Source: an uncultured Clostridia bacterium (GTDB taxonomy: Bacteria > Bacillota > Clostridia > Christensenellales > UBA1242). Taken from it: a stretch of 64,000 bases of DNA. The translations under genes and the position numbers were made by a program. The DNA is taken from positions 9,934-73,933 of the forward strand of contig CALWEM010000027.1 of assembly GCA_944377315.1 (NCBI GenBank), read 5' to 3'. Below are positions 18,801 to 56,888 of this stretch, in pieces (positions within the stretch are counted from its first letter, which is position 1; every line of letters begins with the position of its first letter). The notes under the pieces are model-generated. The model was not told where the DNA came from, searched no databases, and saw nothing but the letters and a program-made list of their open reading frames with translations.

Positions 18801-20714
18801 CACATTTTCAATTTTTAATTCTCCTGACTCGGAATTTACACTGTAAGTTGCACCGTCAACTTGACAATTTAAAATATAGCCACCCGCATTACCATATTCC
18901 CAATCATTTCCATCTAATATAAAATCATCCATATAAGCATTTTTAAAAACATAGTCTTTTTTTGCTAATCCACATTTAGCAACATATGTTGCATTATTAT
19001 TGTAACAAGTGGAAACATTTAAACCATTACTATCAGTAATCCGATCAGCAGTTTCTTCTTCACCATTATAAATACCTAAATATGTATATTTTCCGCTGTT
19101 ATTACTTGACACTTTAAATAACTCATTGGCAAATGGGTCTTTCGTAAAATGATATGTGTTTAATTTATTTGCATCATTGCCTTTCACATCACTATATGAG
19201 TTATCACTGGTTTTGACACTAACATAGTAACCATCATTATAATATTCAAATTTATAGTCAGTTGAACCATTCTCATTCACTTCATTCATAAGCCCAATAT
19301 CAATGGATGCAACAAAATATGACAATGTTATCATATCATCGCCATCAAAATTATTATAAGTTGAACAAATCGACATTGTTGTCCAATTCTTATCTAAATT
19401 GGAACCATATTTGTCACCCCAATTTATGTCTCCCAAACTACTTGTTATGTTGGTTTTTGATAAAATACTGTTTGAAGATGCTACTATTAATCCACTTGTT
19501 TCAGCATTCCCGTTATACAAAGGAAGATTTTTGTAGTTTGTTCGAATACAATCAGAAATTGTTAAAGATGAAAATGTTTCTACATTTCCAGCATAACAAC
19601 CAACTTGACCATTATTTATATTATTTTGAGTATAATTTGAATTGGCACTTACACAGCTTATTATTTTGTCATCATTACTGTTTAATCCAATTCCTCTACG
19701 AACAACATAACCTATGATTCCACCAACATATTTACTTGTGTTGTTTGTCCCTAATTGTCCATAGTTAACGCACCTAGTAATCTCTAAATCAGAATTCCTA
19801 ACAAGAACTAAACCAGATTCTACTGATGTTTCACCAACAATCCCGCCAACGTGTCCATTTCCATTTATTGAGCCATAATTGACACAATCAATAACTTTTG
19901 TATAAAAATCAGCAGCAGCTACAATAGAACTATCACCAATTGTAACTTCACCGACAATTCCGCCTTGCCCATTGTCATCGGTTGGTTCTAGATTAACCAT
20001 ATTAACACAACCTTCAATTGTGACCCCACCATAACTTGTAACCAAAATGCCAGCATTCGCTGCTGAAGCAACTCCGTCTGGTGCAACAAAAGCACAATTT
20101 TTGATTTCTGATGCTTTTGCTGTGCAAATAAAGCCACCTCTTTTCTCATCATTTTTAACTATTGGTGCTTCAAACACGATGTCATATATTTTTGCATCTG
20201 AAATATGTTCAAAAAGATAACCCCATTCCTCTAAATTGATTCCTCTGATTCCTGCCACATTTCCGTCTGCTTCGATAGTGCCATTCCCAATCAAACAGCC
20301 AGTGAAAGTTGTATCTTTTGAAAGATCCCAATAGTGTGCAGACATATCAAGATCGGCATTAACCAAAAAGACGCCATCTGGGTCTTTAATGATATATGCC
20401 AACTCTTCTGGCTTTGTCACAATATACGGACTATCTTGTGTGCCTTTACCTACATCAGGCTTTTTTGCATTACTTGACCATTTCCCGCTTGGCGTGGCGG
20501 TTGATGTCATATCGTCAGAGCCTTCACTTGATGTTTCACCACTCTCACTGTCACCACTCTCGGTTTGATTTTCATCTTCAACCGTGTAACTTGGATTTGT
20601 GTCCAAACTGTATGCATTAATTAAATTTGCACCGCACAAAGAAAAAACTGCCGTGAACAAAACGCACATTAAAGATATCAGAAATTTTTTTGATAAATTT
20701 TTCCCTAATCTCAT
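15837..20714 (-). CDS. Giant secreted protein with GLUG-type repeats at both ends
   Basis: 1625 aa with a signal peptide (MRLGKNLSKKFLISLMCVLFTAVFSLCGA). Repeated GG[IV][IV]G...C[VI]N.G motifs at N- and C-termini, an N/S/T/D-rich centre, and a Cys-rich tail CCHSSS...CDDCNEKFNW. Confidence 0.85.
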   Translation of the reverse strand: MRLGKNLSKKFLISLMCVLFTAVFSLCGANLINAYSLDTNPSYTVEDENQTESGDSESGETSSEGSDDMTSTATPSGKWSSNAKKPDVGKGTQDSPYIVTKPEELAYIIKDPDGVFLVNADLDMSAHYWDLSKDTTFTGCLIGNGTIEADGNVAGIRGINLEEWGYLFEHISDAKIYDIVFEAPIVKNDEKRGGFICTAKASEIKNCAFVAPDGVASAANAGILVTSYGGVTIEGCVNMVNLEPTDDNGQGGIVGEVTIGDSSIVAAADFYTKVIDCVNYGSINGNGHVGGIVGETSVESGLVLVRNSDLEITRCVNYGQLGTNNTSKYVGGIIGYVVRRGIGLNSNDDKIISCVSANSNYTQNNINNGQVGCYAGNVETFSSLTISDCIRTNYKNLPLYNGNAETSGLIVASSNSILSKTNITSSLGDINWGDKYGSNLDKNWTTMSICSTYNNFDGDDMITLSYFVASIDIGLMNEVNENGSTDYKFEYYNDGYYVSVKTSDNSYSDVKGNDANKLNTYHFTKDPFANELFKVSSNNSGKYTYLGIYNGEEETADRITDSNGLNVSTCYNNNATYVAKCGLAKKDYVFKNAYMDDFILDGNDWEYGNAGGYILNCQVDGATYSVNSESGELKIENVSANSKIVLTIKMNENYELFGVFREDNIVGNKIDGNKIVDVLYEGSGVFNHSSINSDATMTYTIDFSYFNTTPFNENKFILLFSRYQYKITTNLTTIVDGVDGENNTTKFVTYGYESRQYARTSNNGNLDLWENIEGEKKKVSIPEVSLIPDSDTQADFFEVYYSYFVCDIKTDGVSLLNKGKDNEASFYWGGGTNFPMDGQNYVDITFSNAPVGISGNQIFYYTLDKNTKVTDFSLNLEKLFNDNYKYDCEINVTIKKFPISVDKEYLKSVDPGYENPDNKDDSFGGKIMTYTFKIVDIYDASVKTSNCYTKDDLGGETIIAVKSDNVTDNEEISMFYAYIDETNKTIVIRVFLPNKFEYGDSVDDSKRCENEYEINSSLDDYVEKKLTDIVNITKTPQKGYYANGDSSDQFVFAKSDEIDESISVDSINSKIEDSKTDSTPLIYLINGGTKSDENSIIIYGTEKTAYLLSYYSLKTIKLEFTTDGGVGLVGSININGENYNNNVNNGDESTGNKTFIVKSYSHISFDFLGYAYVENSNGSNETQISFHKLGSVSYKITVSSNDTDSSNVTVLTDDTDSNKDPVLTYREKFDFQLINDIASNEQEITLTFTANYMEIGNYTVCVPEFKNGYYEIKSEENLYWLAMQLMQTKTDGGEGYNIKNMRFKQTCDIYLTKEFVPIGTKLIPFDGIYDGQYYSIYDLSISAENLENIGLFGCVNGATIKNLNLVSGSVSGFSKVGGVVGNAVNSTFKNVNNYSCSVNYNKNGFTENHIFVICEEGGENNGDGEDTQQTTTTQPTVVIKPVSSGDASSGDVGYNKELLLRYNLDAYNNNLTYKFEVSSGVPGNDFTNNSNSSDSGIHIAYSTKNLPYYIAGFAGYIEGGNVTVSSSRSEIIGKEYLPETQNETGDETGDETGDLETDQTLDESARMIAGFVGFVENASISYCYTTSYTFNGGSNETTLTCCHSSSADNVFDPSSCDDCNEKFNW
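16053..16088 (-). repeat. In-frame 12-nt tandem repeat (3 copies) encoding GDET
   Basis: ATCGCCAGTTTC x3 on the plus strand, giving GDETGDETGDETGD in the protein. Confidence 0.9.
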
Positions 20715-20723
20715 CTTGTTATT

Positions 20724-20753
20724 ATTTTAACTATTTTTGCAAAAAAATGTCAA
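20724..20753 (-). promoter_or_regulatory. Sigma-A-like promoter of the 1625-aa protein gene
   Basis: Minus strand TTGACA-18 nt-TAAAAT. The -10 box ends 9 nt before the ATG and no SD is present. Confidence 0.6.
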
Positions 20754-20871
20754 ATTATTTTAATAATTTTTTAATTTATTTTTATTTTATTAATATTTAT
20801 ATTAATATCTATTTTTTCACTAATTATTTTCTTATATTTTTTGGGTTTTTAAGCATTTTTTATATAAAAGT

Positions 20872-29280: not shown

Positions 29281-29516
29281 AAAAAATGCCGTCCCATATT
29301 ATTAGGACGACAAAGCCGTGATACCACCTAATTTCGTGCCGAAAAGCACCTCAATTTTGACATTTTACGCCTGCCAACGCGACAATCCCTACGCAATTTC
29401 TCTTCAAGATTGCAACTAGAAAGTGAATTCAACGGAGCAATTCTGTCTTTTTTCAGCAACCAAGACTCTCTGTGAGAACAGCCACCCGCCTACTACTCTT
29501 TCATCATCGTTTTTAC
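29281..29516 (-). promoter_or_regulatory. T-box riboswitch leader, Phe (UUC specifier)
   Basis: Minus strand has AGAGAG, distal GGTTGCTGAAA, specifier GAATTCA, T-box AAATTAGGTGGTATCACGG, and terminator CGTCCTAATAATATGGGACGG plus a T run. Confidence 0.88.
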
Positions 29517-31792: not shown

Positions 31793-34700
31793 TTATTTGC
31801 ACGCCAAGGTGTTGATATTGATGGTCACGCGAACACCCAAGATTTCTTGCATCTTCATTTGCGTGCCAGTTATGCCACCCGCTGAAATGGTTTGAGCATT
31901 GTTTAGATTCGAGCCGACATCGCGTGTCCAATAGAATAGATAACCACCCAAGATATCAGCAACAAGGTCGGAGAACTCGGCTGACAAGTCGCCAAACACG
32001 CTTTGAATTTCACTTTCATTTGACACTATTGCCTGTGTCGGAACATCGGAAGTGGATGTTGTGCCGTTTGCCATTTTGAAATTGGTGACAGTATATGTTT
32101 TTGAATTCAAATAACTCAACTCATCCGACCCCATATATTCTTCACTTGCAATTCCACTGACATTGGTGCTGATTTGAGCATATGCATAACCCTTGCCCAA
32201 GCAATCATTTGCTGTCCAACCGGTTTGAAAGACGCTTGCAAAGACGATTTTTTCACTCACCGCTGTCACATTGCCACTTTCAGTCGCGTAGTTTGATGAA
32301 TAATCCCCAGCAAGAACATATTTCACCGGCTCAACTTTGAACCAACTTCCATTATAGCGAACATATTCATCATTTTTATATGTGTATGCATCATAAGGTT
32401 TTGTTCCATACGCTTCTTGACCATCTAACTTAAAACTAAAATTCGAAAATGTAAAGTCATATGTAATGTCTTCGATATACCACGTATTAAAAACAATATA
32501 AAGTTCTTCATAATTTCCAGAATTAAAAGTAAAACTATTGTCTTGATCAAGGTTATCAAAATATAATTGAGTTTCAGAGTTCTTATCTTGCGTTGGTTTT
32601 TCATATAAAACTTGTAATCTTAACCATTTTGCCATTTCATTACTATATGAACAATTGAAACTAATGGTATAACATTTGTTCGGTTGAACTTGAACTTTTG
32701 TGCCAAAAATACACCCACCGCCCATTTCTATTAAATGAACTCTGTTTACCTTTTCTTCATTGTCATATTCAATAGTCAATGTGCTCTTATCTCCACGATT
32801 TGTATACCTATAGACTTCCCATTGTGTCATATTTTCTTCAAGTTGCTTGGTTGGAAGAGTGTATACATTTCCATTTGTTTCTTCTGCATCTTTCAAACTT
32901 TCAAGTTCACTGATATCACTCTCATTTGTCACCTTACTTTGTGGAAAATAGCCCATTTCAACATACCAGTAGTCATTTTCTTTGTCATATATTGCTTCAT
33001 TTTTTGGAATCCAATGGGCGTGCCAAGAAACACCATCAGTGTATATTTGAATGTTGCTAGCATTTATTGAACCATCCGAAGCAATTGCGGTTGCACCCTC
33101 GCCGTTTTCTTTTTCAAAATAGCCCGCAAAAATGTAGCCAGTTTTGGTTGGCGGTGTCACAGTTTCAATTTTGTTTTGACAATTTTGATCATTATACCAC
33201 GCGTCACCATATTTTAGATAAATATATTTTGGAGATTCATTGTTGTGACTCTCTAAAGTAACTTTATATGTGTTTGGCTCCCATTGAGCATACAATGTCG
33301 TCCTTGAAGTGATGACAATAGTGTTACCTTCGTAATAATGTGTGCCAGTGCCAGAAGATGAAGTTGTCCAGCCGTCTGGCGAATATCCTTGGCGGTCAAT
33401 ATCATTTTTTGCCACTTTGACAGAAGTGTTGTGCAGAACATTTTGTGGTGCAGGATAGTCACTTGACGAGCCATATGAACTGTAGTAATCAAAAACATAC
33501 ACTTCGCTTATGAAAACAAGAATTGTTTTATTTGTTGTTGGCGTCCACTCGACCGTGTATGTGTCATTCTTGCTTCTGAAAATCATATCATAATCAGTCA
33601 AGGTTGGTGTCAAGCCAATTTTCATATAATACACAACATTAAACGAGCCGGTTGACGAAGCACCATTATATAAACTCAAAACCACATTTTTTGTTGATGA
33701 ACTTTGAGATTGATTGACTTGCGCAGATTTTCCCGCATCAATAATGTTGTATGCAATGCTGGAAATAAACGGAAAAGCAACTTTAAGCCCCACCGAATTT
33801 GTGGCATTCAAAGCCTGAAATCTGGCGGTGAATGTGTATGAATTCATTTGCCAATTTGCTTTTAGTGTGACCGTGCTTCCCATTTTGAGTCCCAAGTCTT
33901 TGAAATATTGGGAAGTTATTTTGGTGTCACCATTTGACCAAGATGACAACTGATTTGGCATTGGTCCTTGCTTTGCAAGTGCTGTGCCGAGATTTGTCGC
34001 AGTCCAACCAGTGAAAGAATAGCCAGACCTTGTTGGATTTGGAATATATAATACCGAACCAAAACAAGCATAATTTGTTTGAATTGAAAGCGAGCCAGAA
34101 TTCAATGAATAAGCAATATAGTAAATTAAATCTGCCAAAACGGGTAAACTATGTGAACCAATCATTCGCCAATCAGTTGATGTGCCAGTCGAAATATCCC
34201 AACTTCCATACACATCTGAATCCACATCATAAAATGCTGATGTGTTCCCATTAAGATAAGTGCAACCATCATTACTTGAAGGTCCGTTGCCATATCCAGT
34301 GCTTGAATGTGAAAAATAGCAATTGCTCACACCGCCACAATATCCACCCACAATTGCTCCACCATAAAGTGTGAAATTGCCAGAATTAAAGCAATTGGTA
34401 ATATAGCCACTATCACTATTGCCACAAATACCACCCGCTCGATAGCCAGAAAATGTTCCTGTGTTATAGCAGTTTGAAACCATTCCTTGACTTTCACCAC
34501 AAATTCCACCCATAATTGAGTAACCAGAAATTGCTCCAGTGTTGTAACAATCGTGTATCATCGGTGCGTAAGCACCTGTGGCAGTTGCTCGCCCAACAAT
34601 TCCACCCAGATATTGCAATGTTCCACCATAAATTGTTGCCGTTATCGTGCTTGAGTTGTAACAATGATGTATATATCCAGAGCTGCGGTTTGGAGAATCA

Positions 34701-35317
34701 ATCAAACCACAAATTCCACCAGCAGTCGGCGAATTTGGTTCAGTGACAGTCACACTTCCGCCAGCATTAAAACAGTTATATATTGTTGTCGCAAAATAAT
34801 CTTGACTACCTGCATACCCAACAATCCCACCAACATATCCAAAGCCACTAAAATGACAATCAACAAGTCCAAGGTCGTGAATTGTTGCACCAACGGTATA
34901 GCCAAAAAGTCCGACATTTGAATAACTAACTGTTAAATTTATGCCGGAAATAATATATCCATCTCCGTCATAATAACCAGAAAACGGATTTGTGCTGTTC
35001 CCAATTGGAACATTGAAACTTGAAACGGCAATATTTGCAGTTTGTCTATAATAAGACCTATTGCCAATGCCATTATTAATATTACTTGCAAGTGTGTTTA
35101 AATCACTTGAATTTTGGATTAAATATGGTGAAGAAGATGTGCCAGAACCGGAAAATTGAGAACTTAAATCTTCATTTTCATTTTGCGAATTGTCAAATCC
35201 CACCCCCGATTCAGTTATGGAGATTTGATTGTATATGTCGCCCAACAAAACACCGCCAGTCACCAAAGCGGACACGATGAAAACTATGAAAAACACAACA
35301 ACAAAAAGTTTTTTCAT
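31793..35317 (-). CDS. Giant surface protein A: N-terminal anchor, GLUG-type repeats, Listeria-Bacteroides-type repeats, shared C-terminal module
   Basis: MKKLFVVVFFIVFIVSALV anchor; repeated GGI[VC]G...CYN.G motifs; PTRSGYSFTGWT and PTKTGYIFAGYF repeats; C-terminus paralogous to the 38588..42064 protein. The track N-extension uses TTG and overlaps the -10 box. Confidence 0.85.
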   Translation of the reverse strand: MKKLFVVVFFIVFIVSALVTGGVLLGDIYNQISITESGVGFDNSQNENEDLSSQFSGSGTSSSPYLIQNSSDLNTLASNINNGIGNRSYYRQTANIAVSSFNVPIGNSTNPFSGYYDGDGYIISGINLTVSYSNVGLFGYTVGATIHDLGLVDCHFSGFGYVGGIVGYAGSQDYFATTIYNCFNAGGSVTVTEPNSPTAGGICGLIDSPNRSSGYIHHCYNSSTITATIYGGTLQYLGGIVGRATATGAYAPMIHDCYNTGAISGYSIMGGICGESQGMVSNCYNTGTFSGYRAGGICGNSDSGYITNCFNSGNFTLYGGAIVGGYCGGVSNCYFSHSSTGYGNGPSSNDGCTYLNGNTSAFYDVDSDVYGSWDISTGTSTDWRMIGSHSLPVLADLIYYIAYSLNSGSLSIQTNYACFGSVLYIPNPTRSGYSFTGWTATNLGTALAKQGPMPNQLSSWSNGDTKITSQYFKDLGLKMGSTVTLKANWQMNSYTFTARFQALNATNSVGLKVAFPFISSIAYNIIDAGKSAQVNQSQSSSTKNVVLSLYNGASSTGSFNVVYYMKIGLTPTLTDYDMIFRSKNDTYTVEWTPTTNKTILVFISEVYVFDYYSSYGSSSDYPAPQNVLHNTSVKVAKNDIDRQGYSPDGWTTSSSGTGTHYYEGNTIVITSRTTLYAQWEPNTYKVTLESHNNESPKYIYLKYGDAWYNDQNCQNKIETVTPPTKTGYIFAGYFEKENGEGATAIASDGSINASNIQIYTDGVSWHAHWIPKNEAIYDKENDYWYVEMGYFPQSKVTNESDISELESLKDAEETNGNVYTLPTKQLEENMTQWEVYRYTNRGDKSTLTIEYDNEEKVNRVHLIEMGGGCIFGTKVQVQPNKCYTISFNCSYSNEMAKWLRLQVLYEKPTQDKNSETQLYFDNLDQDNSFTFNSGNYEELYIVFNTWYIEDITYDFTFSNFSFKLDGQEAYGTKPYDAYTYKNDEYVRYNGSWFKVEPVKYVLAGDYSSNYATESGNVTAVSEKIVFASVFQTGWTANDCLGKGYAYAQISTNVSGIASEEYMGSDELSYLNSKTYTVTNFKMANGTTSTSDVPTQAIVSNESEIQSVFGDLSAEFSDLVADILGGYLFYWTRDVGSNLNNAQTISAGGITGTQMKMQEILGVRVTININTLACK

Positions 35318-35404
35318 ATTGATATTATAAATTATTATACAATTTTTTTGCAAACAAATTTATATATATTATCACAAAATTTTTCATAGAGATAACTTTT
35401 ATGC

Positions 35405-37029: not shown

Positions 37030-38053
37030 TGATATTTATCACAAGAAAGACAAGTGCAAGTGCCATCCCCGCATACATTGTGAGCGGAAGTTTGCCCACA
37101 AACACCGGTTCTTCACCGACATATTCTTCTTCGTCTTCCTTTTTTGAAGAAAAATCTTTTTTGCGAAGAAAGAAGAAATAGAAAAGGAAGAAAAGTCCAC
37201 CCACAACAAGTGCCAAAACAAGAGAAACCACCACATACACCCAATTTATAGGCAAATTCAAGTTGATAGCACCGATATTTATTAGATATTGAATGGTCAC
37301 TGTGGTGAAATTGTTGAAGAAATGGAAAAGTATGGTGTATAAAAGATTGTTGGTTTTGTTCATAATGATGGCAAACACCATACCCATAATGAAAGGATAA
37401 ATGAATTGGTTAAGATTTTGGTGAATAAGTGCAAAAAGCAAACTCGACAAAACAATTGCCCAAACACTGCCAATTCCCCTTTTCAAACCGCTGAAAATGA
37501 CACCACGGAAGATTAATTCTTCACAAATTGCCGGCAAAACTGCAAAAAAGACAACATAAAAGACATACCAACCAAAATTGTTGAGTGGAATTGGATTTTC
37601 TTGTGACGAAATTCCCCACATATCAAAAAGCGTGCCAAAGCAACCTTCCACGAGTCCAAAAAGCCCAATCACAAAAATAATCCCAAAAAGACAGCAGAAA
37701 ACTGTGGTCAATGGGTCAACTTTTTTGAATTTCACTTTGACAGCAGAAAGAGTTATGTGATTTATCTTGTTATATATGAAAAACAAAGAAATGAAAGTGA
37801 TTTCTGCAAGCAAAGTGTATGGAATCGAAAACCAAAGATAGTTGTCATACAAAGTCCGAATCCAACTCTCTCCTTCCACAAAAGTTATGCCAGCACCCTT
37901 TGCAATTGCGAACCCCAAATATGAAAAAATGAGCGAAAGGACAAAGGGAATGATTAAAGCATACAAAAACACCTTTCCTGCATCATTAAGATTATAGAAA
38001 TTTCGTTTTGCCACAACATTTTTAAATTCTTTTTCATTAACAATTTTTGCCAT
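37022..38053 (-). CDS. CPBP-family intramembrane glutamic endopeptidase
   Basis: Motifs CEELIFRG, FALIHQN and FHFFNNF with multiple TM helices. Confidence 0.85.
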   Translation of the reverse strand: MAKIVNEKEFKNVVAKRNFYNLNDAGKVFLYALIIPFVLSLIFSYLGFAIAKGAGITFVEGESWIRTLYDNYLWFSIPYTLLAEITFISLFFIYNKINHITLSAVKVKFKKVDPLTTVFCCLFGIIFVIGLFGLVEGCFGTLFDMWGISSQENPIPLNNFGWYVFYVVFFAVLPAICEELIFRGVIFSGLKRGIGSVWAIVLSSLLFALIHQNLNQFIYPFIMGMVFAIIMNKTNNLLYTILFHFFNNFTTVTIQYLINIGAINLNLPINWVYVVVSLVLALVVGGLFFLFYFFFLRKKDFSSKKEDEEEYVGEEPVFVGKLPLTMYAGMALALVFLVINIIA

Positions 38054-38132
38054 AACTAAAATATATCACAATTTTAAGAAAAAAACAACAATATTAGTGG
38101 ACATACAAAAATTTTTGCGGTAAAATAATGAA

Positions 38133-38585
38133 ATGAAAAATGAAAAGGATTTTATGGCTGTTGCCATTAATGAAGCAAAAAGGGCTCTCAAAAAAGGTGA
38201 AGTGCCGATTGGTGCGTGTGTTGTCAAAAATGGAAAAGTGATTGCAAAAGGCTTTAATTGTCGCGAAAAAACAAAAAATGCCACCAAACACGCCGAAATT
38301 GTTGCCATCACAAAAGCCTGCCGAAAACTTCACGACTGGCGTCTTGCCGATTGTGAAATATATGTCACTTTGAAGCCTTGCCCAATGTGTGCTGGTGCAA
38401 TTGTCAATGCCCGCATAAAAACTTGCCACTATGGCGCGGATGAAACAAATTCCACTGACAACTTGTGTGAGCAGATTTTTTCCAGCAACCGCCTTAATCA
38501 TAAAACAGAGATAAGAAAAGACGAGAACGCGTCCGAAACTTGTTCTCATCTTCTTTCAACATTCTTTAAGCAAAAAAGGAAATGA
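38133..38585 (+). CDS. tadA: tRNA adenosine(34) deaminase TadA
   Basis: HAEIVAI and PCPMCAGA zinc motifs. Confidence 0.93.
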   Translation: MKNEKDFMAVAINEAKRALKKGEVPIGACVVKNGKVIAKGFNCREKTKNATKHAEIVAITKACRKLHDWRLADCEIYVTLKPCPMCAGAIVNARIKTCHYGADETNSTDNLCEQIFSSNRLNHKTEIRKDENASETCSHLLSTFFKQKRK

Positions 38586-38587
38586 TT

Positions 38588-41500
38588 TTATTCCAAGCAA
38601 ACAAAAGTTTCCACGCAAACAGTGATTCGAACACCCAAAATTTCTGTCATTTTTGCTTGTAGCCCGGTTTTCCCGCCTGCCGATATGCATTCCGCATTAC
38701 CCAAATTTGAGCCAACATCGCGTGTGTAGTAAAGTAAATTTCCGCCCAAAAGGTCAGTGACAAGGTCGGAAAACTTCACTGCATAGTTTCCATCTCCAAA
38801 CACTTCATCCATATCTTCTTTTGATGATAACACACAGCTCAAATCCTTTGGATTTTCCACCACATTTTCTCCATCCGCCGTTTTGAAGTTTTTGATATTC
38901 AAATCCCAATCTATTGTTGTTAAATAATAATCTTCAAGAAAAAGACTAAAATCAACTTCGACATAAAAATCAAGATCCCCATATAAATCTGAATCCAAAT
39001 ATCCTTGTCCAAGCCCCAGTGAATTTTCTGTGACATACATCCAAGGAAGCATATAGACAATGTCTTCGGTGATTGCCATAATTTTTTCATCGTCAACTGC
39101 ATTACCTTCGGTATAATCACCCGAAAGAATGAATCGCACCGGCTCAACAAGATAATATCTTCCTATCTCTTCAACGCTGTCATCTTCCATTACTTCTTCA
39201 CTATTTAATATTATATAAGCATACTCTTCATTATCTAATAAATAAGTATCATATGTGATATTAAAACCAAAAAATAATGACGAATTATATATATCGAAAT
39301 TTGCTCTCTTTTCATCAAGTTCGGCAATTTTAACTTCGTCTTCAAGGCGGGTTTGTGGAATACTTCCCATTTCAAGATACCAATAGCCTTTTTCTTCATC
39401 GAATTTGGCTTCATTCTTGACTTCCCAATGTGCGTATATTGTGGTGTCAGTCGTGGTGAACTCATCACGATTTGTTTGCACCATTCCATATTTGTCCATA
39501 ATCAAAATACCATCTTCTGTGTAATACCCTTCAAAAGTGTAGCCAGTGCGTTTCGGCAATGATGACACATTGAGTGCGGTAAACTTGGTGCCTTCAGTGC
39601 AGTTTTGTGAGAGATAGAAGCCGTCACTATACTTCAAATAAACAACACCAACGCTACTTGTACCGCCACCCATCTCCAAGGTGATTGTGAGAATATCGCT
39701 CTCCCAAACAGCAAACATTGTGACGCTTGCCGGCTCGTTATAGGCACTTGTGAATGTGAAAGATGCTCCCGAAGTGTAAGTTGGCTCGGTGGCAGAACTG
39801 TCCGCTGACCAGCCTTTGAAAACATAGCCCGGACGAGTTGGCACAGTGGAAGTTATTGTCATTGCAGATGATTGCAACGCATTGCCATATTGATTCCAGC
39901 GTTGCAAGCCAGTGGTGTCTTCGCCTGAATATGTCCCGCCATTTCCGTCATATGAAACTGTGACATCACGATTTGAAATGGCGAATAAACTCGCATTCGA
40001 TGATGACGAAATTGATTGACCTGGCAAACTCCCCGTGACTGCCGATCGAGTTCTTCCCCAAGAATAAAACACCCATCCATTTTGGTCATACATATCATCG
40101 ACTTCATCAGCACCCAGAATGACAAACGAACCAGAATGTGGTTGTGAAAAACCGCTTGTTGAGCCATCGTTTTTGCGATAGTAATATTTAGTTTCATATA
40201 TATGTTCATCGGCTTGAATGGCAATAAACATATCGGTGTTCACAGTGATTGTGGTTGTTATGTCAGTTGAAATTGTGACCGGATTTGACAATTGTGAACC
40301 TGCAAAAAGCCTTCCCCATCCACTAAAATAGCCATTTTCGTTCACTTCGCCAGTGAGAGTCACTTGTGTGCCCGCGTCCACCTTGACTTCTTTATATCTT
40401 CCCCGCTCATCTTCCTGCCAAACAGCACTTTCAAAATCGACATCTGGTGAAGAAAACATAAACCACTCATTTTCGTAAACCCGAAGGCTGAATTCTGGCG
40501 GTTGCAAATGTGGAAGCCCATAATTTATGTTTTCATCAATCGCCCAAACACTCTCAAAATCCCAAGGATAAGTCGTGTCCCAATTATCAGCATTTGTATA
40601 CCAACTTTCATCAAATAATGTTTCCTTGGAAAGTGAAATAGTTTTAAACGCGGAATTAATAGATCCTTGTTCTTCAACTGAATAATAATAAAACGTTCTG
40701 TTGTATGGATTCATTGAACCAAATAACGAATCATTAAAAAAATCATATGGTGAAAGATAAATATAGTTAATATGCTGAATTGCTGGCACAAAACAGCAAT
40801 ATACTGTGCCAATTCCCATAGCCCCGTAACCTCCTCCATCCGGGGTGTTTTTTCTCCCAACAAACGCATACGAAAAAGAATTTTTTGCAAAAGGTGTCAC
40901 TCCACAAAGACCACCATTTGTGGTAGCAGTTTCAGCATATGAAACATATACATACAAATTTCCAATATTATAGCAGTTTTGTATTCCACCAATTCTAAAA
41001 TCATCACGAGTAGGATCATAACTGGAATTTACAAATCCAACTATTCCGCCACCATAATAGCCATAGATATGTATATTGCCAATATTATAACAATTTACAA
41101 TAAAGAAAGTGCAACCAGTGCTTGTATTAGCAATAAAACGCCCAGCAATCCCTCCAACATATTCGCTTGCGAAAATTTCACCTTCATTATAGCATTCTAA
41201 AACTAAATCAGCAGTTAAAGAAAAACCAGTACTACTTGTCTTAACATATCCAACAATTCCGCCAACATTTAAGTGTTGACTTTCATAACTCACATCCAAA
41301 TAACTATCATCATTTATACTTCCGTGATTTGAACAATAAGATATTGAACGTTCACGTCTAGATGGAATAAATTTCCCCACAATACCACCAGTGCAAGAAA
41401 GTTCGTCAGCAGCAAAACCAGATTGTGGACCAATTATATCGCAATAGTTATGGCAATTATAAATCGTTGTGCTTGATGCATAGCCAACAACTGCTCCAAA

Positions 41501-42064
41501 ATAACCAACACCCCCACCTAGCAACGGCGAAGTGTTGTTGTCATCCTTTATCACCACATTCTTTATTGTTGCACCCACCGTATAGCCAAAAAGACCTTTA
41601 TATGTTCCTTGGAATTGATAACCGCCTAACCCAGAAATTGCGAAACCACCGCCATCATATGTCCCACGAAAAGGATTTCCCGGCGTTTCTGATTGAGATG
41701 AGCCAATCGGCTCCCACATATGTGCCGACAAATCAAGGTCAGCAGTTTGAATGAAAGTTGCTTTTTGCCACCACACATTCGCGTCATCACCATTTTCAGA
41801 ATTTACTCTGTATGAAAGCCACGCCAAATGCTGTGGAGTTTCAATGTATGCATAATATGTCGTCCCAATCATTGTCCTTTTGGTTGGCACTGCCCAATTT
41901 CCAGTGTCTGTCCAAAAGCCCGTTGCAGTCGAAGTGATTTCATTGTTTTGGAATTGGTCTTTTTTGTCATCATCAAAAAGAAAGAATGAGCCAAAAATTA
42001 ACAAGGCAATCAATATTGCTGAAAAAACACATATAGAAAGGATTTTCGATAATTTTTTTGTCAT
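38588..42064 (-). CDS. Giant surface protein B, paralog of 31793..35317
   Basis: 1158 aa with MTKKLSKILSICVFSAILIALLIF anchor, GLUG-type repeats, PTRPGYVFKGWS and PKRTGYTFEGYY repeats, and C-terminus YYTRDVGSNLGN...LGVRITV. GGAGAGAG RBS. Confidence 0.88.
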   Translation of the reverse strand: MTKKLSKILSICVFSAILIALLIFGSFFLFDDDKKDQFQNNEITSTATGFWTDTGNWAVPTKRTMIGTTYYAYIETPQHLAWLSYRVNSENGDDANVWWQKATFIQTADLDLSAHMWEPIGSSQSETPGNPFRGTYDGGGFAISGLGGYQFQGTYKGLFGYTVGATIKNVVIKDDNNTSPLLGGGVGYFGAVVGYASSTTIYNCHNYCDIIGPQSGFAADELSCTGGIVGKFIPSRRERSISYCSNHGSINDDSYLDVSYESQHLNVGGIVGYVKTSSTGFSLTADLVLECYNEGEIFASEYVGGIAGRFIANTSTGCTFFIVNCYNIGNIHIYGYYGGGIVGFVNSSYDPTRDDFRIGGIQNCYNIGNLYVYVSYAETATTNGGLCGVTPFAKNSFSYAFVGRKNTPDGGGYGAMGIGTVYCCFVPAIQHINYIYLSPYDFFNDSLFGSMNPYNRTFYYYSVEEQGSINSAFKTISLSKETLFDESWYTNADNWDTTYPWDFESVWAIDENINYGLPHLQPPEFSLRVYENEWFMFSSPDVDFESAVWQEDERGRYKEVKVDAGTQVTLTGEVNENGYFSGWGRLFAGSQLSNPVTISTDITTTITVNTDMFIAIQADEHIYETKYYYRKNDGSTSGFSQPHSGSFVILGADEVDDMYDQNGWVFYSWGRTRSAVTGSLPGQSISSSSNASLFAISNRDVTVSYDGNGGTYSGEDTTGLQRWNQYGNALQSSAMTITSTVPTRPGYVFKGWSADSSATEPTYTSGASFTFTSAYNEPASVTMFAVWESDILTITLEMGGGTSSVGVVYLKYSDGFYLSQNCTEGTKFTALNVSSLPKRTGYTFEGYYTEDGILIMDKYGMVQTNRDEFTTTDTTIYAHWEVKNEAKFDEEKGYWYLEMGSIPQTRLEDEVKIAELDEKRANFDIYNSSLFFGFNITYDTYLLDNEEYAYIILNSEEVMEDDSVEEIGRYYLVEPVRFILSGDYTEGNAVDDEKIMAITEDIVYMLPWMYVTENSLGLGQGYLDSDLYGDLDFYVEVDFSLFLEDYYLTTIDWDLNIKNFKTADGENVVENPKDLSCVLSSKEDMDEVFGDGNYAVKFSDLVTDLLGGNLLYYTRDVGSNLGNAECISAGGKTGLQAKMTEILGVRITVCVETFVCLE

Positions 42065-42115
42065 TCACTCTCTCCATTTTTTTATTTGTTAAAGAATTAA
42101 CATTTTTCATTTTTG

Positions 42116-42143
42116 ATTTTATCAAATACCCCCCCCGTGTCAA
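42116..42143 (-). promoter_or_regulatory. Promoter of surface protein B with a G8 tract in the spacer
   Basis: Minus strand TTGACA-cGGGGGGGGtatttga-TAAAAT: 16-nt spacer, TGn extended -10. The homopolymer is at 42129-42136. Confidence 0.7.
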
Positions 42144-42275
42144 CTTTTTTGTGGTAGTTTTGAAAAATTTTTAAAGAAAAATTTAATAAAAAAAGAGAGA
42201 AAGTTTTTGCCTAAAAACCACTTCTTATTCTCTCTCAAAAATATATTTTTATGAATAGCAATTTTTTAATAACAC

Positions 42276-42306
42276 AAAAAGAAAAAAGATAGGAATTTTC
42301 CTATCT
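42276..42306 (-). terminator. Rho-independent terminator of the SHOCT gene
   Basis: Minus strand AGATAGGAA-AA-TTCCTATCT followed by TTTTTTCTTTTT. Confidence 0.7.
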
Positions 42307-42809
42307 CACAAGAGTTCCATCAATTTTTGATTGAATTCTTCTTCGGTGATAACACCATCTTCTTTCATTTTTCTCAATTCTTCAATCTTACGCTTTTTCT
42401 CTTCTTCGCGTCTGTCTTCCATTCGCTCTTCACGGCGTATTTCACTTGGCGAATTGATGATGATTATGTCCGGAATGAACATTGAAATCAAAAGCAAAAT
42501 CCAAGGAATCCAGCCACCTGCCAAGATGATTATAATGAGCCCAGCAATGTAATATCCTTGCGAACGGCGGAAATATTTCCCCTTGTTTCTCACTGCATAG
42601 AGAAGACAAACGCTTCCGATTATTCCTGCCACAACTTCCACAAAAACAAAATATATGCTGTAATATGAAATCATCACAAGATAAACACCCAAGTTCGCAT
42701 AAAGTTCTGGGTCAACGCAGTATATTATGGCAATGACAAGATTTGCCACCATATTGATAAGATTGATTATTGCAGAACTTAAAATCAAATTTCGTTTTGT
42801 TTTGTTCAT
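42306..42809 (-). CDS. SHOCT-domain membrane protein
   Basis: 4 TM helices, then C-terminal EDGVITEEEFNQKLMELL (SHOCT). Start set to the ATG at 42809. Confidence 0.8.
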   Translation of the reverse strand: MNKTKRNLILSSAIINLINMVANLVIAIIYCVDPELYANLGVYLVMISYYSIYFVFVEVVAGIIGSVCLLYAVRNKGKYFRRSQGYYIAGLIIIILAGGWIPWILLLISMFIPDIIIINSPSEIRREERMEDRREEEKKRKIEELRKMKEDGVITEEEFNQKLMELL

Positions 42810-42991
42810 ATTTTTCCCTTTTATTATCAACTTTGAAGTTATTATTCCCCCAATTCGCTGATAATTAACATTATGCTAACATTTTTTTGAAATATTTGTC
42901 AAATCATTTTGAAAAAAAACGATTTTGTGCTAAAAATATCTAGTAAGCAAATTTTGAAAAATTTTTTTATATAATGAAAAGGGGCAAAATT

Positions 42992-43777
42992 ATGAGAATT
43001 GAAAAAAGATTGGTGGTTATCACTGGCGCTTCAAGTGGAATCGGCTTGGGGCTTAAAAAAATGTTTGAAAAAAAAGGCGACAAAGTCATTGATATCTCCC
43101 TTGACGGCGCGGATTATAAATGCGATGTCGGAAATGACGCCGAACTCAAAAAATGTTTTGACGATATCTATCTCAACAATGGCGAGATTGACATTTTGGT
43201 GACCTGTGCTGGCTATGGACTTTCAGGTGCTGTGGAACTTCTCCCAGAATCTTCCGCTCGCAAACAATTTGATGTCAACTTCTTTGGCACAAGCAATGCC
43301 TGCAAATATGCCATTCCAATGATGAAGAAAAAATCAAAAATTGTCATCATCTCTTCTGCTACTGCACTCTTCCCTGTGCCTTTCAAAACCTATTATTCAG
43401 CAAGCAAAGCCGCTGTCAACAGTTTTGCACAAGGACTCAAAATGGAACTTTCCAAAACCGGCATTGATGTGACTTCCATCTGCCCTGGTGATATCAAAAC
43501 AAACTTCTCGAAAAACCGCGACAAACACTATGACACAAACGAAAGATATGGCAAATCAATTGAACTTTCCACAAAACCGACTGAAAAAACGGAAAAAAGA
43601 AGAATGTCGCCAGAATACGCCGTCAAAAAAATTATGAAAGTGATTGAAAAAAGGAAATTTAAGCCACAATATGTCATCGGCAAGCAATATCACATCTTCT
43701 ATGCTTTCAAACGCACGGTGACCACAAATTTCTTGAATAAATGCATCACCAAAATTTTCTATAAAACTGAAAAATAA
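42992..43777 (+). CDS. SDR family oxidoreductase
   Basis: TGASSGIG, CAG and YSASKAA motifs. Start at ATG 42992 after AAAGGGG. Confidence 0.85.
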   Translation: MRIEKRLVVITGASSGIGLGLKKMFEKKGDKVIDISLDGADYKCDVGNDAELKKCFDDIYLNNGEIDILVTCAGYGLSGAVELLPESSARKQFDVNFFGTSNACKYAIPMMKKKSKIVIISSATALFPVPFKTYYSASKAAVNSFAQGLKMELSKTGIDVTSICPGDIKTNFSKNRDKHYDTNERYGKSIELSTKPTEKTEKRRMSPEYAVKKIMKVIEKRKFKPQYVIGKQYHIFYAFKRTVTTNFLNKCITKIFYKTEK

Positions 43778-43835
43778 CATAAAAGTTTGTCACACTTTCC
43801 CTGTTTTCAAATATGATGATAATGGAGGGACAAAA

Positions 43836-43997
43836 ATGATTTATCAAAACAAATACTGTCAAGGTCATTGCGTAAATCTTCGTCCTTGCCACACACCACC
43901 ATTTCCACCTTGCTTTGATGTGTGTCCAAATTGTCAAAATTCTGATGAAATTTTGATGTTCCTTATTGGTTACACAATTGGTAGATGTTGTAAATAA
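43836..43997 (+). CDS. Unannotated 53-aa cysteine-rich small protein
   Basis: Below the track size cut-off. ATGGAGGG RBS 6 nt before the ATG. Translates MIYQNKYCQGHCVNLRPCHTPPFPPCFDVCPNCQNSDEILMFLIGYTIGRCCK (9 Cys). A terminator follows at 44043. Confidence 0.55.
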   Translation: MIYQNKYCQGHCVNLRPCHTPPFPPCFDVCPNCQNSDEILMFLIGYTIGRCCK

Positions 43998-44042
43998 TTG
44001 ATAGTATCCCCTTCAAAAACAAAAGAAAAAAATAATGGTGGC

Positions 44043-44078
44043 AAAAAAGGTGTCGATTTTGACACCTTTTTTCTTTTT
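44043..44078. terminator. Bidirectional terminator
   Basis: An A run, then AAGGTGTC-GATTTT-GACACCTT, then a T run. Confidence 0.75.
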
Positions 44079-44113
44079 TGAAAAATTATTCATCTTTTTG
44101 TATATTTATTATA

Positions 44114-44136
44114 GTAGTATGCAATGTAGTATGCAA
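44114..44136. repeat. Direct repeat of the TATGCA half-site
   Basis: GTAGTATGCAA-T-GTAGTATGCAA, 18 nt after the pepF stop. Confidence 0.7.
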
Positions 44137-44153
44137 GGAAAATTTGATAAAAT

Positions 44154-45944
44154 TTATTTCAAAATTTCCTGCCATTTTTTGATATATTCACGACAAACCG
44201 CAAAAACATCATCATAAATTTTTTCATTTTCCAAATCGCAATCGCACTCTTTCAAAAGGTCAATCGGACCTTTTGTGCAACCTGACGACAGGAATTTCTT
44301 ATACTTTGAAACCATATTTTCGCTGTCAGAAAGAAGTTTGTTTGAAATATTAATGGCACTAATAAGTCCTGTTGCATATTTATACACATAAAATGGTCGA
44401 TAGAAATGCGGAATTCGAGCCCATTCATATTTGATTTCATCAATCATTTTCACTTTTTTGCCATAATAGAACTTGTTGAGTTCCATATATTTCGAACACA
44501 AAACTTCCTTTGTCACTGGTTCGCCCTTTTCATATGTTTCATATGCAAACTCTTCAAACTCGGCAAACATCGTCTGTCTGAATATTGTCGAACGCACCTG
44601 CACCATCATTTGATTATATAAAAACATTCTCTCCTTGTCAGTTTTTGCTTTGGACAAAAGATAGTTGAGAAGCAACATTTCATTTGTTGTGCTGGCAACT
44701 TCGGCAACAAAAATGGTGTAGCCAGCATTTTGAACTGGCTGATTTGTGTCAGAATAATAGGAGTGCATTGCGTGTCCCAATTCGTGTGCCAGCGTGAAAA
44801 CGCTTTCCAAATTCCCTTCAAAATTGGTCAAAACAACCGGCGTTGCTCCATATGTGCTTGTGGAAAATGCCCCGCTGTCTTTGTTTTTGTTTGAAAGAAC
44901 ATCAATCCAGCGTTCATTCTTGGCTCGGTCAATGAGTTCGACATAATCATCGCCTAACACGCTGACCGCTTTTTTGATGAGTTCAATTGCTTCGTCATAT
45001 GTGAATTTATACTTAATTTCCTTAACAGTTGGTGCAAAAGTGTCGTATATGGCGATATCTTTGAGATTGAGCATCTTTCTCTTTATTTCAAAGAAATCAG
45101 CAACAATATCAACATTTTCTCTGACCTTTTTGATTAACAATTTATACGCTTTTTCGCTTGCATTTTCGTTATAAATCGACTTGGAAAGACTGGATTTATA
45201 CTTTCTCAACTTGGCAATTGTTGCCGTCACTTTGATGTCACCGAGATAGTTGTTTGTCAGCGTGTTGATAAACTCGCCATATTTTCCATTCATCTTCACA
45301 AAAGCATTTTTGCGAAGCGTTCTGTCCTCACTTTCGACATACAGAGAATATTTTGAATGGTCAAGCGGATGCTTTTTGCCATTAGAGTCCTTTATTTCGC
45401 CAAAATTTAGGTCAACATCACTGAATTTGTCAAAGTTTTCAGCATAGCCATTCGTGAATCTATTGATATTTGCCAACAATCTTTCTTCTTTTGGCGACAA
45501 CTTATGCATCTTTCTTCTGATTGTTTCCTTGAACATTCGATGATAATTTTTGAACTTCTCATCATTTATCAATTCTTTCAATTTCTTGACAGAAAATTTG
45601 AAAATTTCAATTTCAATAAAAACCAAATCAACATTGAATTTGTTTGCCAAAAAGGCAATTTTTTCAAACATTTTGTTGCTTTCTTCACAAGCATTGTCGC
45701 CCGCTTTGGTTAAATGAGCATAGATGCACAAAAAACCAAACTCAATGTCAAATTTTGTGTTCATTTCAAGGCATTCAAACAAAATTTCATTGGAAGCGTT
45801 GAGTTTACCCTTAAATTTTTTCAACTCTTCAACATCGCCTTGCACTTTTTCCAAACGCGTGTAAAAATCTTCATTATTTTTGCAAAATTTGCTTAAATCC
45901 CACTTATATTTTTCTTCAATTTCTTCTCGTTTTTTCATTTTCAC
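44154..45944 (-). CDS. pepF: Oligoendopeptidase F (M3B)
   Basis: 596 aa with HELGHAMH zinc motif. Confidence 0.93.
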   Translation of the reverse strand: MKMKKREEIEEKYKWDLSKFCKNNEDFYTRLEKVQGDVEELKKFKGKLNASNEILFECLEMNTKFDIEFGFLCIYAHLTKAGDNACEESNKMFEKIAFLANKFNVDLVFIEIEIFKFSVKKLKELINDEKFKNYHRMFKETIRRKMHKLSPKEERLLANINRFTNGYAENFDKFSDVDLNFGEIKDSNGKKHPLDHSKYSLYVESEDRTLRKNAFVKMNGKYGEFINTLTNNYLGDIKVTATIAKLRKYKSSLSKSIYNENASEKAYKLLIKKVRENVDIVADFFEIKRKMLNLKDIAIYDTFAPTVKEIKYKFTYDEAIELIKKAVSVLGDDYVELIDRAKNERWIDVLSNKNKDSGAFSTSTYGATPVVLTNFEGNLESVFTLAHELGHAMHSYYSDTNQPVQNAGYTIFVAEVASTTNEMLLLNYLLSKAKTDKERMFLYNQMMVQVRSTIFRQTMFAEFEEFAYETYEKGEPVTKEVLCSKYMELNKFYYGKKVKMIDEIKYEWARIPHFYRPFYVYKYATGLISAINISNKLLSDSENMVSKYKKFLSSGCTKGPIDLLKECDCDLENEKIYDDVFAVCREYIKKWQEILK

Positions 45945-46639
45945 CTCACAAAATACTTTTCAATTTTAAAATTTTTCCAAGGTTCTTTTGTGGTATCTGG
46001 CGGATTTATGAACACCATTTTTTCTTTTGTGGTTGGATGAATAAAGGAAAGTTTGCCAGCCCAAAGAGCAAGATTGGAAGTTGTCTTACTTTTATTCTTC
46101 CCATATTTATTGTCGCCAAACAATGGGCATCCAATATTGGCAAGTTGCACGCGTATTTGATGGCTTCGCCCAGTCAAAATTTCAATTTCCAAAAGACTAT
46201 GCTTCCCGTCATTTTCAAGTTCTCGATACTTCAATTCTGCTTTCTTTGCACCCGTTTCACTCATTGGCACAACTTTGACAATATTTTCTTTTTCATCTTT
46301 TTTGAGATAATTGACAAGAGTGTTTTCTCGATATTTCACCAAATTTTCAGTGACTGCATAATAAATTTTTTCAGTGGTGTGTTCCTGAAATTGTTTGGAT
46401 AAGCGATTTGCTGATTTTGAGTTGCGAGCAAAGACCATTATTCCACCGGTTGGTCTGTCCAATCTGTGCACAAGACCGATGAAGGCTTCTCCCTGCTTAT
46501 TGTATTTTTCTTTGACATAATTTTTGACCATTGAAAGCAAATCCATATCACGACTGTTATCACTTTGCGTAGGAACATTTTGAGGTTTTAGAACCACAAT
46601 GATTTGGTTGTCTTCATATAAAACATCTAATTTTTCCAT
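45941..46639 (-). CDS. RluA-family pseudouridine synthase
   Basis: HRLDRPTGG catalytic motif and GRSHQIRVQ. Start set to the ATG at 46639 (MEKLDVLYED). Confidence 0.88.
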   Translation of the reverse strand: MEKLDVLYEDNQIIVVLKPQNVPTQSDNSRDMDLLSMVKNYVKEKYNKQGEAFIGLVHRLDRPTGGIMVFARNSKSANRLSKQFQEHTTEKIYYAVTENLVKYRENTLVNYLKKDEKENIVKVVPMSETGAKKAELKYRELENDGKHSLLEIEILTGRSHQIRVQLANIGCPLFGDNKYGKNKSKTTSNLALWAGKLSFIHPTTKEKMVFINPPDTTKEPWKNFKIEKYFVR

Positions 46640-55964: not shown

Positions 55965-56039
55965 TGGTGCACCCAGAAGGACTCGAACCCTCCATAATGG
56001 TTCCGAAGACCATTGTGATATCCACTTCACTATGGGTGC
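55965..56039 (-). tRNA. tRNA-Arg (anticodon UCG), CCA encoded
   Basis: Manual fold of 75 nt: acceptor GCACCCA/TGGGTGC, D arm GTGA..TCAC, anticodon stem ATGGT/ACCAT with loop CTTCGGA, T arm GAGGG-TTCGAGT-CCTTC, 3' ACCA. Confidence 0.92.
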
Positions 56040-56798: not shown

Positions 56799-56888
56799 TG
56801 GCGCAGAGAAAGGGATTCGAACCCTTGGTGCGATTTCTCGCACACAGCCTTTCCAGGGCTGCACCTTAAACCGCTCGGACATCTCTGC
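56799..56888 (-). tRNA. tRNA-Ser (anticodon GGA), CCA encoded
   Basis: Manual fold of 90 nt: acceptor GCAGAGA/TCTCTGC, anticodon stem CAGCC/GGCTG with loop CTGGAAA, long variable arm, T arm AAGGG-TTCGAAT-CCCTT. Confidence 0.92.

Follow-up and report, generated by a model that had tools for sequence, protein, structure and literature searches.

An uninterrupted run of eight G residues (G8) lies between the TTGACA and TAAAAT hexamers of a promoter in front of a gene for a large surface protein in an uncultured Clostridia bacterium. It raises the question of whether the length of the run serves as a phase-variation switch, as a first-pass annotation of this DNA had proposed. We examined the locus in its window, that is, the whole 64,000-nucleotide stretch of DNA that was analyzed, and in related strains and species. 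On the minus strand, positions 42143–42116 read TTGACA-C-GGGGGGGG-TATTTGA-TAAAAT, exactly as annotated, with a spacer of 16 nt and a TGn-extended −10 element whose TG occupies −15/−14 (42124–42123). Compared with the consensus, the −35 hexamer is a perfect match (6/6) and the −10 hexamer matches at five of six positions; in a consensus promoter scan of the region 38000–44200, the site has the joint top score, 11/12 with the TG. The transcription start site is a predicted rather than a mapped one, and the assignment of the promoter is backed by a footprint conserved across relatives. The ATG of the 1158-aa ORF lies 51 nt downstream of the promoter, behind a GGAGAGAG ribosome-binding site, and the first ~20 nt of the predicted 5′ UTR (CAAAAATGAAAAA) are common to the related cassette of L012/L018, which is described below. 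On the upstream side, a terminator-like hairpin ends the SHOCT gene and thus sets the promoter region apart as its own transcription unit.

Table 1. Window coordinates of the promoter, the gene it precedes and other features discussed in the text
Feature	Position	Strand	Description
Gene for the 1158-aa protein	38588..42064	-	N-terminal hydrophobic anchor, Flg_new (InlB B-repeat) domains, ~340-aa C-terminal domain common to the family
Predicted 5′ UTR, ~45 nt	42065..42109	-	GGAGAGAG ribosome-binding site at 42068-42075; predicted start site
−10 hexamer TAAAAT	42116..42121	-	From sequence and promoter scan
TATTTGA, conserved 3′ part of the spacer with TGn	42122..42128	-	TATTTG[A/C/G] in all copies, partly demanded by the search pattern
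C (42137) and G8 (42129-42136), length-variable part of the spacer	42129..42137	-	In relatives G8, G9, G4AG4, G6AG3, G8AG3, G2TG5
−35 hexamer TTGACA	42138..42143	-	TTGACT in relatives
Upstream block TACCAC-AAAAAAG, UP-like, directly 5′ of −35	42144..42156	-	ATACC[T/A]CAAAAAAG common to all related cassettes
Terminator-like hairpin closing the upstream SHOCT gene (42306-42830)	42286..42307	-	Separates the promoter region from the upstream gene
Segment deleted in L049 and L052	38888..42156		3,269 bp, between two copies of an 8-bp TTCAAAAC microhomology
SRP RNA, T-box leader, two tRNAs	2102-2367, 29300-29516, 55968-56039, 56802-56888		Rfam features

Two other accounts of the site were discarded. 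The hexamers are canonical for sigma-A with a TGn element, which by eye rules out a sporulation or alternative sigma-factor promoter, and a G-quadruplex is ruled out by the presence of only one or two G runs. The Rfam search gave no RNA element at or near the promoter; the Rfam features found elsewhere in the window are ordinary, with the T-box leader placed upstream of pheS/pheT.

The 1158-aa protein carries two stretches of Flg_new repeats (InlB B-repeat, TIGR02543), with scores of 34.3 bits against PF09479 (cut-off 27) and 37.1 against TIGR02543 (cut-off 20.95), and has no wall-anchor motif. GGIVG/GGIAG repeats of a GLUG-like type are seen in it by eye only: PF07581 (GLUG) has no match in the protein, not even when its N-terminal 488 aa are searched at E ≤ 1, and is matched by homologues and by the paralogue encoded at 31793–35353 of the window. 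The N-terminal half and the C-terminal domain belong to no Pfam or NCBIfam family. Its homologues, at most 37% identical, are large proteins of the Flg_new/GLUG kind from uncultured Clostridia; the protein itself forms a singleton cluster in the protein collection, and its exact look-up returned zero contigs. With its anchor, its Flg_new/TIGR02543 repeats and the high nonsynonymous-to-synonymous counts given below, the product is of the surface-exposed, contingency type, and the family found around it bears out the annotation as a surface protein with paralogs. The neighboring genes are housekeeping ones (ileS, a methyltransferase gene, rluA, pepF, a gene for a short-chain dehydrogenase/reductase (SDR) and CAAX protease genes), and the sporulation genes spoVA and yunB are found near the locus in relatives.

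Two further large ORFs of the window are worth recording. The paralogue at 31793–35353, a second Flg_new and GLUG protein of 1186 aa, is found on the same strand farther downstream, past two CAAX proteases and rlmH, and might be co-transcribed with the 38588–42064 gene, since no convincing terminator follows 38588. The other ORF, at 15837–20714, encodes 1625 aa with no Pfam match. Upstream of it (20715–20770) is found TTGACA-T7GCAAAAATAGT-TAAAAT, with an 18-nt spacer that contains a T7 run; this promoter-like site is only ~9 nt from the ATG, which casts doubt on one of the two, the start codon or the promoter call.

How unusual is the G run itself? It is the sole G or C run of 6 nt or more in the 64-kb window, which has a G+C content of 35.7% and, on its plus strand, ten C5 runs and zero G5 runs. 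To this extent the run is as striking as had been annotated; however, at least one G8 or C8 is present in 20 of 100 dinucleotide shuffles of the window, so the occurrence of a G8 in 64 kb of sequence has no significance by itself. The full 28-nt motif, for its part, has no match in the shuffles, even when 3 mismatches are allowed. The run is not an assembly error, as four independent same-species assemblies also read G8. Among the strong promoter-like matches in the window, spacers of 17 nt number 19 against 8.1 expected and spacers of 16 nt number 8 against 8.2 expected.

The survey of runs was extended to 483 kb of clade loci, a sample with some redundancy, where each G or C run of 6 nt or more sits in a −35/−10 spacer. 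One of these spacers holds a C tract: contig L026 of a sister species reads TTGACC-AACT-C9-GTGT-TAAAAT at 17738–17766, with a 17-nt spacer and a TGn element, and this promoter precedes the gene of a 364-aa HExxH protein without signal peptide that belongs to no Pfam or NCBIfam family. Its flanks differ from those of the G-tract promoters, so that it represents an independent, second homopolymer-in-spacer promoter, and it was found without pattern bias because L026 had been retrieved for its IleRS gene. The avoidance of G and C runs everywhere but in promoter spacers is a classic signature for the prediction of contingency loci.

The promoter belongs to a family. A related ENA contig, reached via the IleRS cluster, carries AAAAAAGTTGACTC-GGGGAGGGG-TATTTGCTAAAAT upstream of a different Flg_new protein, a lipoprotein of 1539 aa that has only the ~340-aa C-terminal domain in common with the 1158-aa protein, at 31% identity. 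The conserved DNA is a block of ~45 nt that begins with TACC, near −50, and runs as far as the −10 hexamer; the sequence on either side is unrelated. A scan of one genome per GTDB species with the pattern AAAGTTGACNCN{6,12}TATTTGNTAAAAT returned 10 loci, eight of which are true copies of this cassette: six in E14__bin174 and two in E27__bin15, both metagenome-assembled genomes (MAGs) of uncultured Clostridia. Copies are also present on ENA and Logan contigs. The annotation had proposed to look for similar tracts at paralog promoters of relatives, and this is what the eight true copies of the two MAGs carry, in forms from G8 to G8AG3. In these MAGs, the cassette stands in front of no fewer than seven other genes for signal-peptide proteins or lipoproteins; a signal-peptide or lipobox ORF starts within 51–132 nt downstream of most true copies, the others being decayed. 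E14__bin174 has 5 tract forms among its 6 copies, and one copy is visible in the 64 kb of the window. The cassette-plus-gene units occupy different chromosomal sites in different species.

The remaining two GTDB hits, L013 (Bacilli) and L015 (Lewinellaceae), have no G tract and were rejected as chance matches, as were the JGI metagenome hits to the flank pattern, all six of them without a G tract. The scans of viral contigs gave nothing related, L057 being an unrelated GC-rich sequence. The ends of two Logan contigs, L030 and L031, fall inside the cassette, consistent with a multi-copy repeat that breaks k-mer assemblies. On contig L039, positions 1–35 are the 3′ end of a 16S rRNA gene (GGATCACCTCCTTT), ~320 nt upstream of the G9 cassette of a 1166-aa family member; a terminator-like hairpin comes next, without a 23S spacer, and several contigs break here.

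Comparison of the copies reveals a series of spacer lengths. The G8 of the window and of L011 and the G2TG5 of L017 give spacers of 16 nt; G9 (L014 and L018) and G4AG4 (L003-type, L016 and L010) give 17 nt; G6AG3 (L019) gives 18 nt and G8AG3 (L012) 20 nt. The series thus passes through the 17-nt optimum, and all of the difference is due to the tract. As the annotation had calculated, one G added to the 16-nt spacer of the window makes 17 nt, the length that the G9 relatives have. Since the flanks were partly fixed by the pattern, the apparent restriction of variation to the tract is biased by the way in which the copies were found: the −35 and −10 hexamers and TATTTG were demanded, the upstream ATACCNCAAA and the G tract were not, and within the upstream block only AAAG was. 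Two cross-species orthologous pairs have a tract indel as their only or main difference. The orthologues L012 (G8AG3) and L018 (G9) are separated by a 3-nt tract indel and by ~4 substitutions across the ~170 flanking nt, which comprise promoter, UTR and coding sequence, and the orthologous site downstream of pepF has G4AG4 in L003/L016 versus G8 in L011.

Within species, the tract length was compared between related strains, which were reached via the neighboring IleRS, then the paralogue proteins and then the SHOCT protein. The IleRS-based contigs for the window's own species (P0121 and P0134) ended short of the promoter; 13 contigs encode the SHOCT protein, and ten of them were compared. G8 is present, as in the window, in L047 and L048 (99.98% identity to the window) and in L050 and L051 (98.7–98.8%). 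In L053 and L055 (97.9% and 98.2%), the sequence is CGGGGGGGGGATTTGA, where a T>G substitution beside the run makes it G9 and leaves the spacer at 16 nt. The promoter has been lost by deletion in L049 and L052 (98.6–98.9%), and the contigs L054 and L056 (98.3% and 99.5%) end short of the site. In all, the spacer is 16 nt in each of the eight same-species assemblies that cover the site, from about four lineages with 0.02–2.1% divergence, at the level of a consensus that hides minority alleles and in a sample of few independent lineages. In the same strain alignments, indels are found at A/T runs of 4–6 nt and at a 9-bp repeat, and none at G8. Likewise, the G9 promoter of the sister species is constant in four assemblies that represent two lineages (L014, L039, L040 and L041, 98.6–98.9% identity), G8AG3 is constant in four near-clonal assemblies, and G4AG4 in seven, including a relative at 95–97%. 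The heterogeneity among strains that the first-pass annotation expected, with invariance named as the result that would speak against it, is therefore not what the consensus sequences of these assemblies display. The clade has genes for MutS and MutL.

Some of the strain polymorphisms lie close to the locus. One is an A4/A5 (T4/T5) difference at ~42985–42989, at the 5′ end of the short-chain dehydrogenase gene, which shifts the called start and gives 267 versus 261 aa. The others, in the pepF-adh intergenic region, are a 9-bp tandem duplication (TTATGTTAT) at ~43771–43783 and an A5/A6 run at ~44067–44072.

The gene itself does vary, by other routes. The deletion in L049 and L052 takes out the promoter cassette and ~1059 codons, and its upstream breakpoint abuts the first conserved base of the cassette (TACC). 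In L053, an A4>A3 frameshift at window position ~41793 (L053 ~1090) introduces a stop at codon 145; this change may mark a genuine pseudogene or be an error due to low coverage. The on/off changes observed at the gene are irreversible deletion and frameshift, without tract changes. Nonsynonymous and synonymous codon differences between strains number 17:13 and 9:7 in the gene, as compared with 1:22 in pepF (44154–45938), 3:12 in rluA (45941–46639) and 0:3–6 in the SHOCT gene (42306–42809); these counts point to relaxed or diversifying selection, either of which may act on the surface protein. In the sister genomes, the family member at L010 4039–7694 is broken into ORFs of 182, 258 and 780 aa, the ORF at L019 ~1524–1545 stops just past a T8 run beyond which coding-like sequence goes on, and at L011 3491–4222 an internal gene fragment has become joined to the G8 promoter, 23 nt downstream of it. 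These family members are decaying, and the whole looks like a fast-evolving, dispensable surface-antigen family.

Taken together, the G8 is a real and slippage-prone element of a strong promoter, of a known kind in a new lineage, and it looks like a slowly changing expression setting rather than a proven fast on/off switch. We give a probability of about one half to the reading that spacer length in a shared sigma-A promoter cassette is set by the G run, that slippage produced the series of lengths and that 16 nt has become fixed here. The cassette, composed of an A/T-rich TACCNC-A6G block, TTGAC[A/T], C, the G tract, TATTTGN and TAAAAT, would be used by sigma-A and would drive genes for large secreted, anchored or lipoprotein products with Flg_new repeats, a family specific to the lineage and found in a small clade of uncultured gut Clostridia that form spores. 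Over evolutionary time, slippage in the run would have yielded the spacers of 16, 17, 18 and 20 nt among members and species, and each gene would thereby have its own promoter setting. In the window's species, the setting would be 16 nt, one less than in the G9 and G4AG4 relatives, a difference that may affect output, and its fixation across the sampled strains suggests a slow microevolutionary rheostat, as opposed to a demonstrated fast switch. What stands of the phase-variation proposal is thus a slippage-prone, length-setting element, with family lengths of 16–20 nt and tract indels between orthologues; what falls short is the switching, the strain consensus being invariant. At extended −10 promoters, the effect of spacer length can be blunted, and the TGn element may leave the output of this promoter rather insensitive to it.

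A second reading, which we hold to be possible on a tentative footing, is a high-frequency phase-variation or expression-volume switch: slipped-strand gain and loss of G would keep minority subpopulations with 17-nt (high) or 15-nt (low) spacers, and selection or mutational bias would hold the 16-nt majority. A homopolymer in the spacer of a surface-protein promoter, the family-wide series from 16 to 20 nt and the tract indels between orthologues are all in keeping with it. So is the T>G change beside the run in L053 and L055, as a T>G next to a homopolymer is the change expected from transient misalignment. The confinement of G and C runs to promoter spacers, the independent C9 included, would be the signature of true contingency loci and may argue against the rheostat; that the clade uses such homopolymers as a contingency system, made up of the G-tract cassette family and the C9 promoter, with switching so infrequent, or under such strong selection, that a consensus does not reveal it, is conceivable though doubtful in our estimate. 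The closest precedent for a switch is the poly-G of Treponema pallidum tp0126, with its optimum at 17 nt (PMC7864442). Against a fast switch stands the constancy of the spacer, in the eight assemblies of the window's species and in the 4, 4 and 7 of the three sister promoters. Moreover, the loci hold distinct, locus-specific lengths, a poor fit to any mutational equilibrium common to them; an A or T breaks up the tract in about half of the distinct copies and stabilizes it; the genes for mismatch repair are present; and where strains have lost expression, the loss goes back to a deletion or a frameshift and not to the tract.

We consider it improbable that the G-rich spacer is instead an operator for a family-specific regulator, or a DNA geometry that tunes RNA polymerase, with the differences in length incidental. 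Such a role would account for the conservation of the ~45-nt block, from −50 to −7, between genomes that are 70–78% identical elsewhere and between paralogues with ~31% protein identity, and for the CGG...GGGTA ends kept in every copy; a weak putative dyad, TACCNC / GNGGTA, may also be read by eye around the −35 hexamer. However, a sequence-specific site should not bear tracts of 8–12 nt, the independent C9 promoter has other flanks, no regulator gene is linked to the locus in the window, and the conservation is partly an artefact of the pattern by which the copies were found. The weakest reading, a chance G8 without a role or a sequencing or assembly artefact, can draw on the shuffled windows and is effectively refuted by the tract at the same promoter position in at least eight further cassette copies, by the four independent assemblies that read G8 and by the absence of G or C runs of 6 nt or more outside promoter spacers in the 483 kb.

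Promoter-homopolymer phase variation is textbook knowledge for Neisseria, Bordetella, Treponema and mycoplasmas, and the switches known from gut Clostridia are mostly invertible elements; our search of the open-access literature found no description of promoter-homopolymer switches in Clostridia. If the contingency-system reading were true, this would be the first simple sequence repeat (SSR)-driven promoter phasome described for Clostridia. The G-tract family offers a concrete, testable candidate for surface diversification in uncultured gut Clostridia, and its tracts stand out because the genomes otherwise shun G and C runs. Caution is called for, as the classic sequence signature is present, yet the strain polymorphism expected with it is absent from the comparison; the surface diversity at the locus came instead from gene deletion, frameshift and amino-acid change.

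Among known systems, the vlp genes of Mycoplasma hyorhinis form a multigene family of surface lipoproteins with near-identical 5′ cassettes (promoter and signal peptide) and a poly-A tract in the −35/−10 spacer, in which 17 nt is the on state and which switches at high frequency in culture. The present family resembles vlp in its shared cassette and in the spacer homopolymer proper to each gene, and differs from it in that the tract is poly-G, often interrupted, and known from assemblies only. In Neisseria meningitidis, a spacer tract in front of porA (poly-G) and of opc and fetA (poly-C) grades the expression of outer-surface proteins, and as a rule these tracts vary in length between isolates. 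The likeness lies in a G/C homopolymer in the −35/−10 spacer of a surface-protein gene; unlike in Neisseria, variation in length between strains was looked for here and not found.

A parallel within the Firmicutes is offered by Streptococcus pyogenes M28, where a 1-nt indel in the intergenic homopolymer of Spy1336/R28-Spy1337 alters the transcript levels of a surface protein (PMC7098570); this is a single locus, polymorphic between strains, and not a cassette family. In Bordetella pertussis, the C7 tract of fimX is nearly fixed in 90 strains, the C7/C8 difference changes transcription 3.8-fold, and the longer fim tracts vary, which for fimX suggests microevolution more than a fast switch (PMC1891110). 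As in fim2, fim3 and fimX, where the tract length sets transcription, a paralogous family shares a promoter element with a G/C homopolymer. The Bordetella tract, however, is placed between the BvgA site and the −10 element and measures 10–18 nt in the variable members, whereas here the −35 is classical, the tracts are of 8–12 nt and there is no known activator.

The closest known case is that of T. pallidum. There, tp0126, which encodes an OmpW homologue, has a poly-G between −35 and −10 and is optimally transcribed with a 17-nt spacer, and the promoters of tprE, tprG, tprJ and tprL also bear poly-G tracts (PMC7864442). Both systems have a poly-G in the spacer of surface-protein promoters and several paralogous genes so equipped. 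In T. pallidum, heterogeneity of length among and within strains and effects on reporters are documented, whereas the family described here is known from sequence alone, with an invariant consensus; its host is a spore-forming, Gram-positive-type gut Clostridium, and its products are Flg_new-repeat proteins and not porins. The mechanism is thus known in kind, and what is new is the lineage, the uncultured spore-forming gut Clostridia, together with the gene family, the Flg_new-repeat surface proteins.
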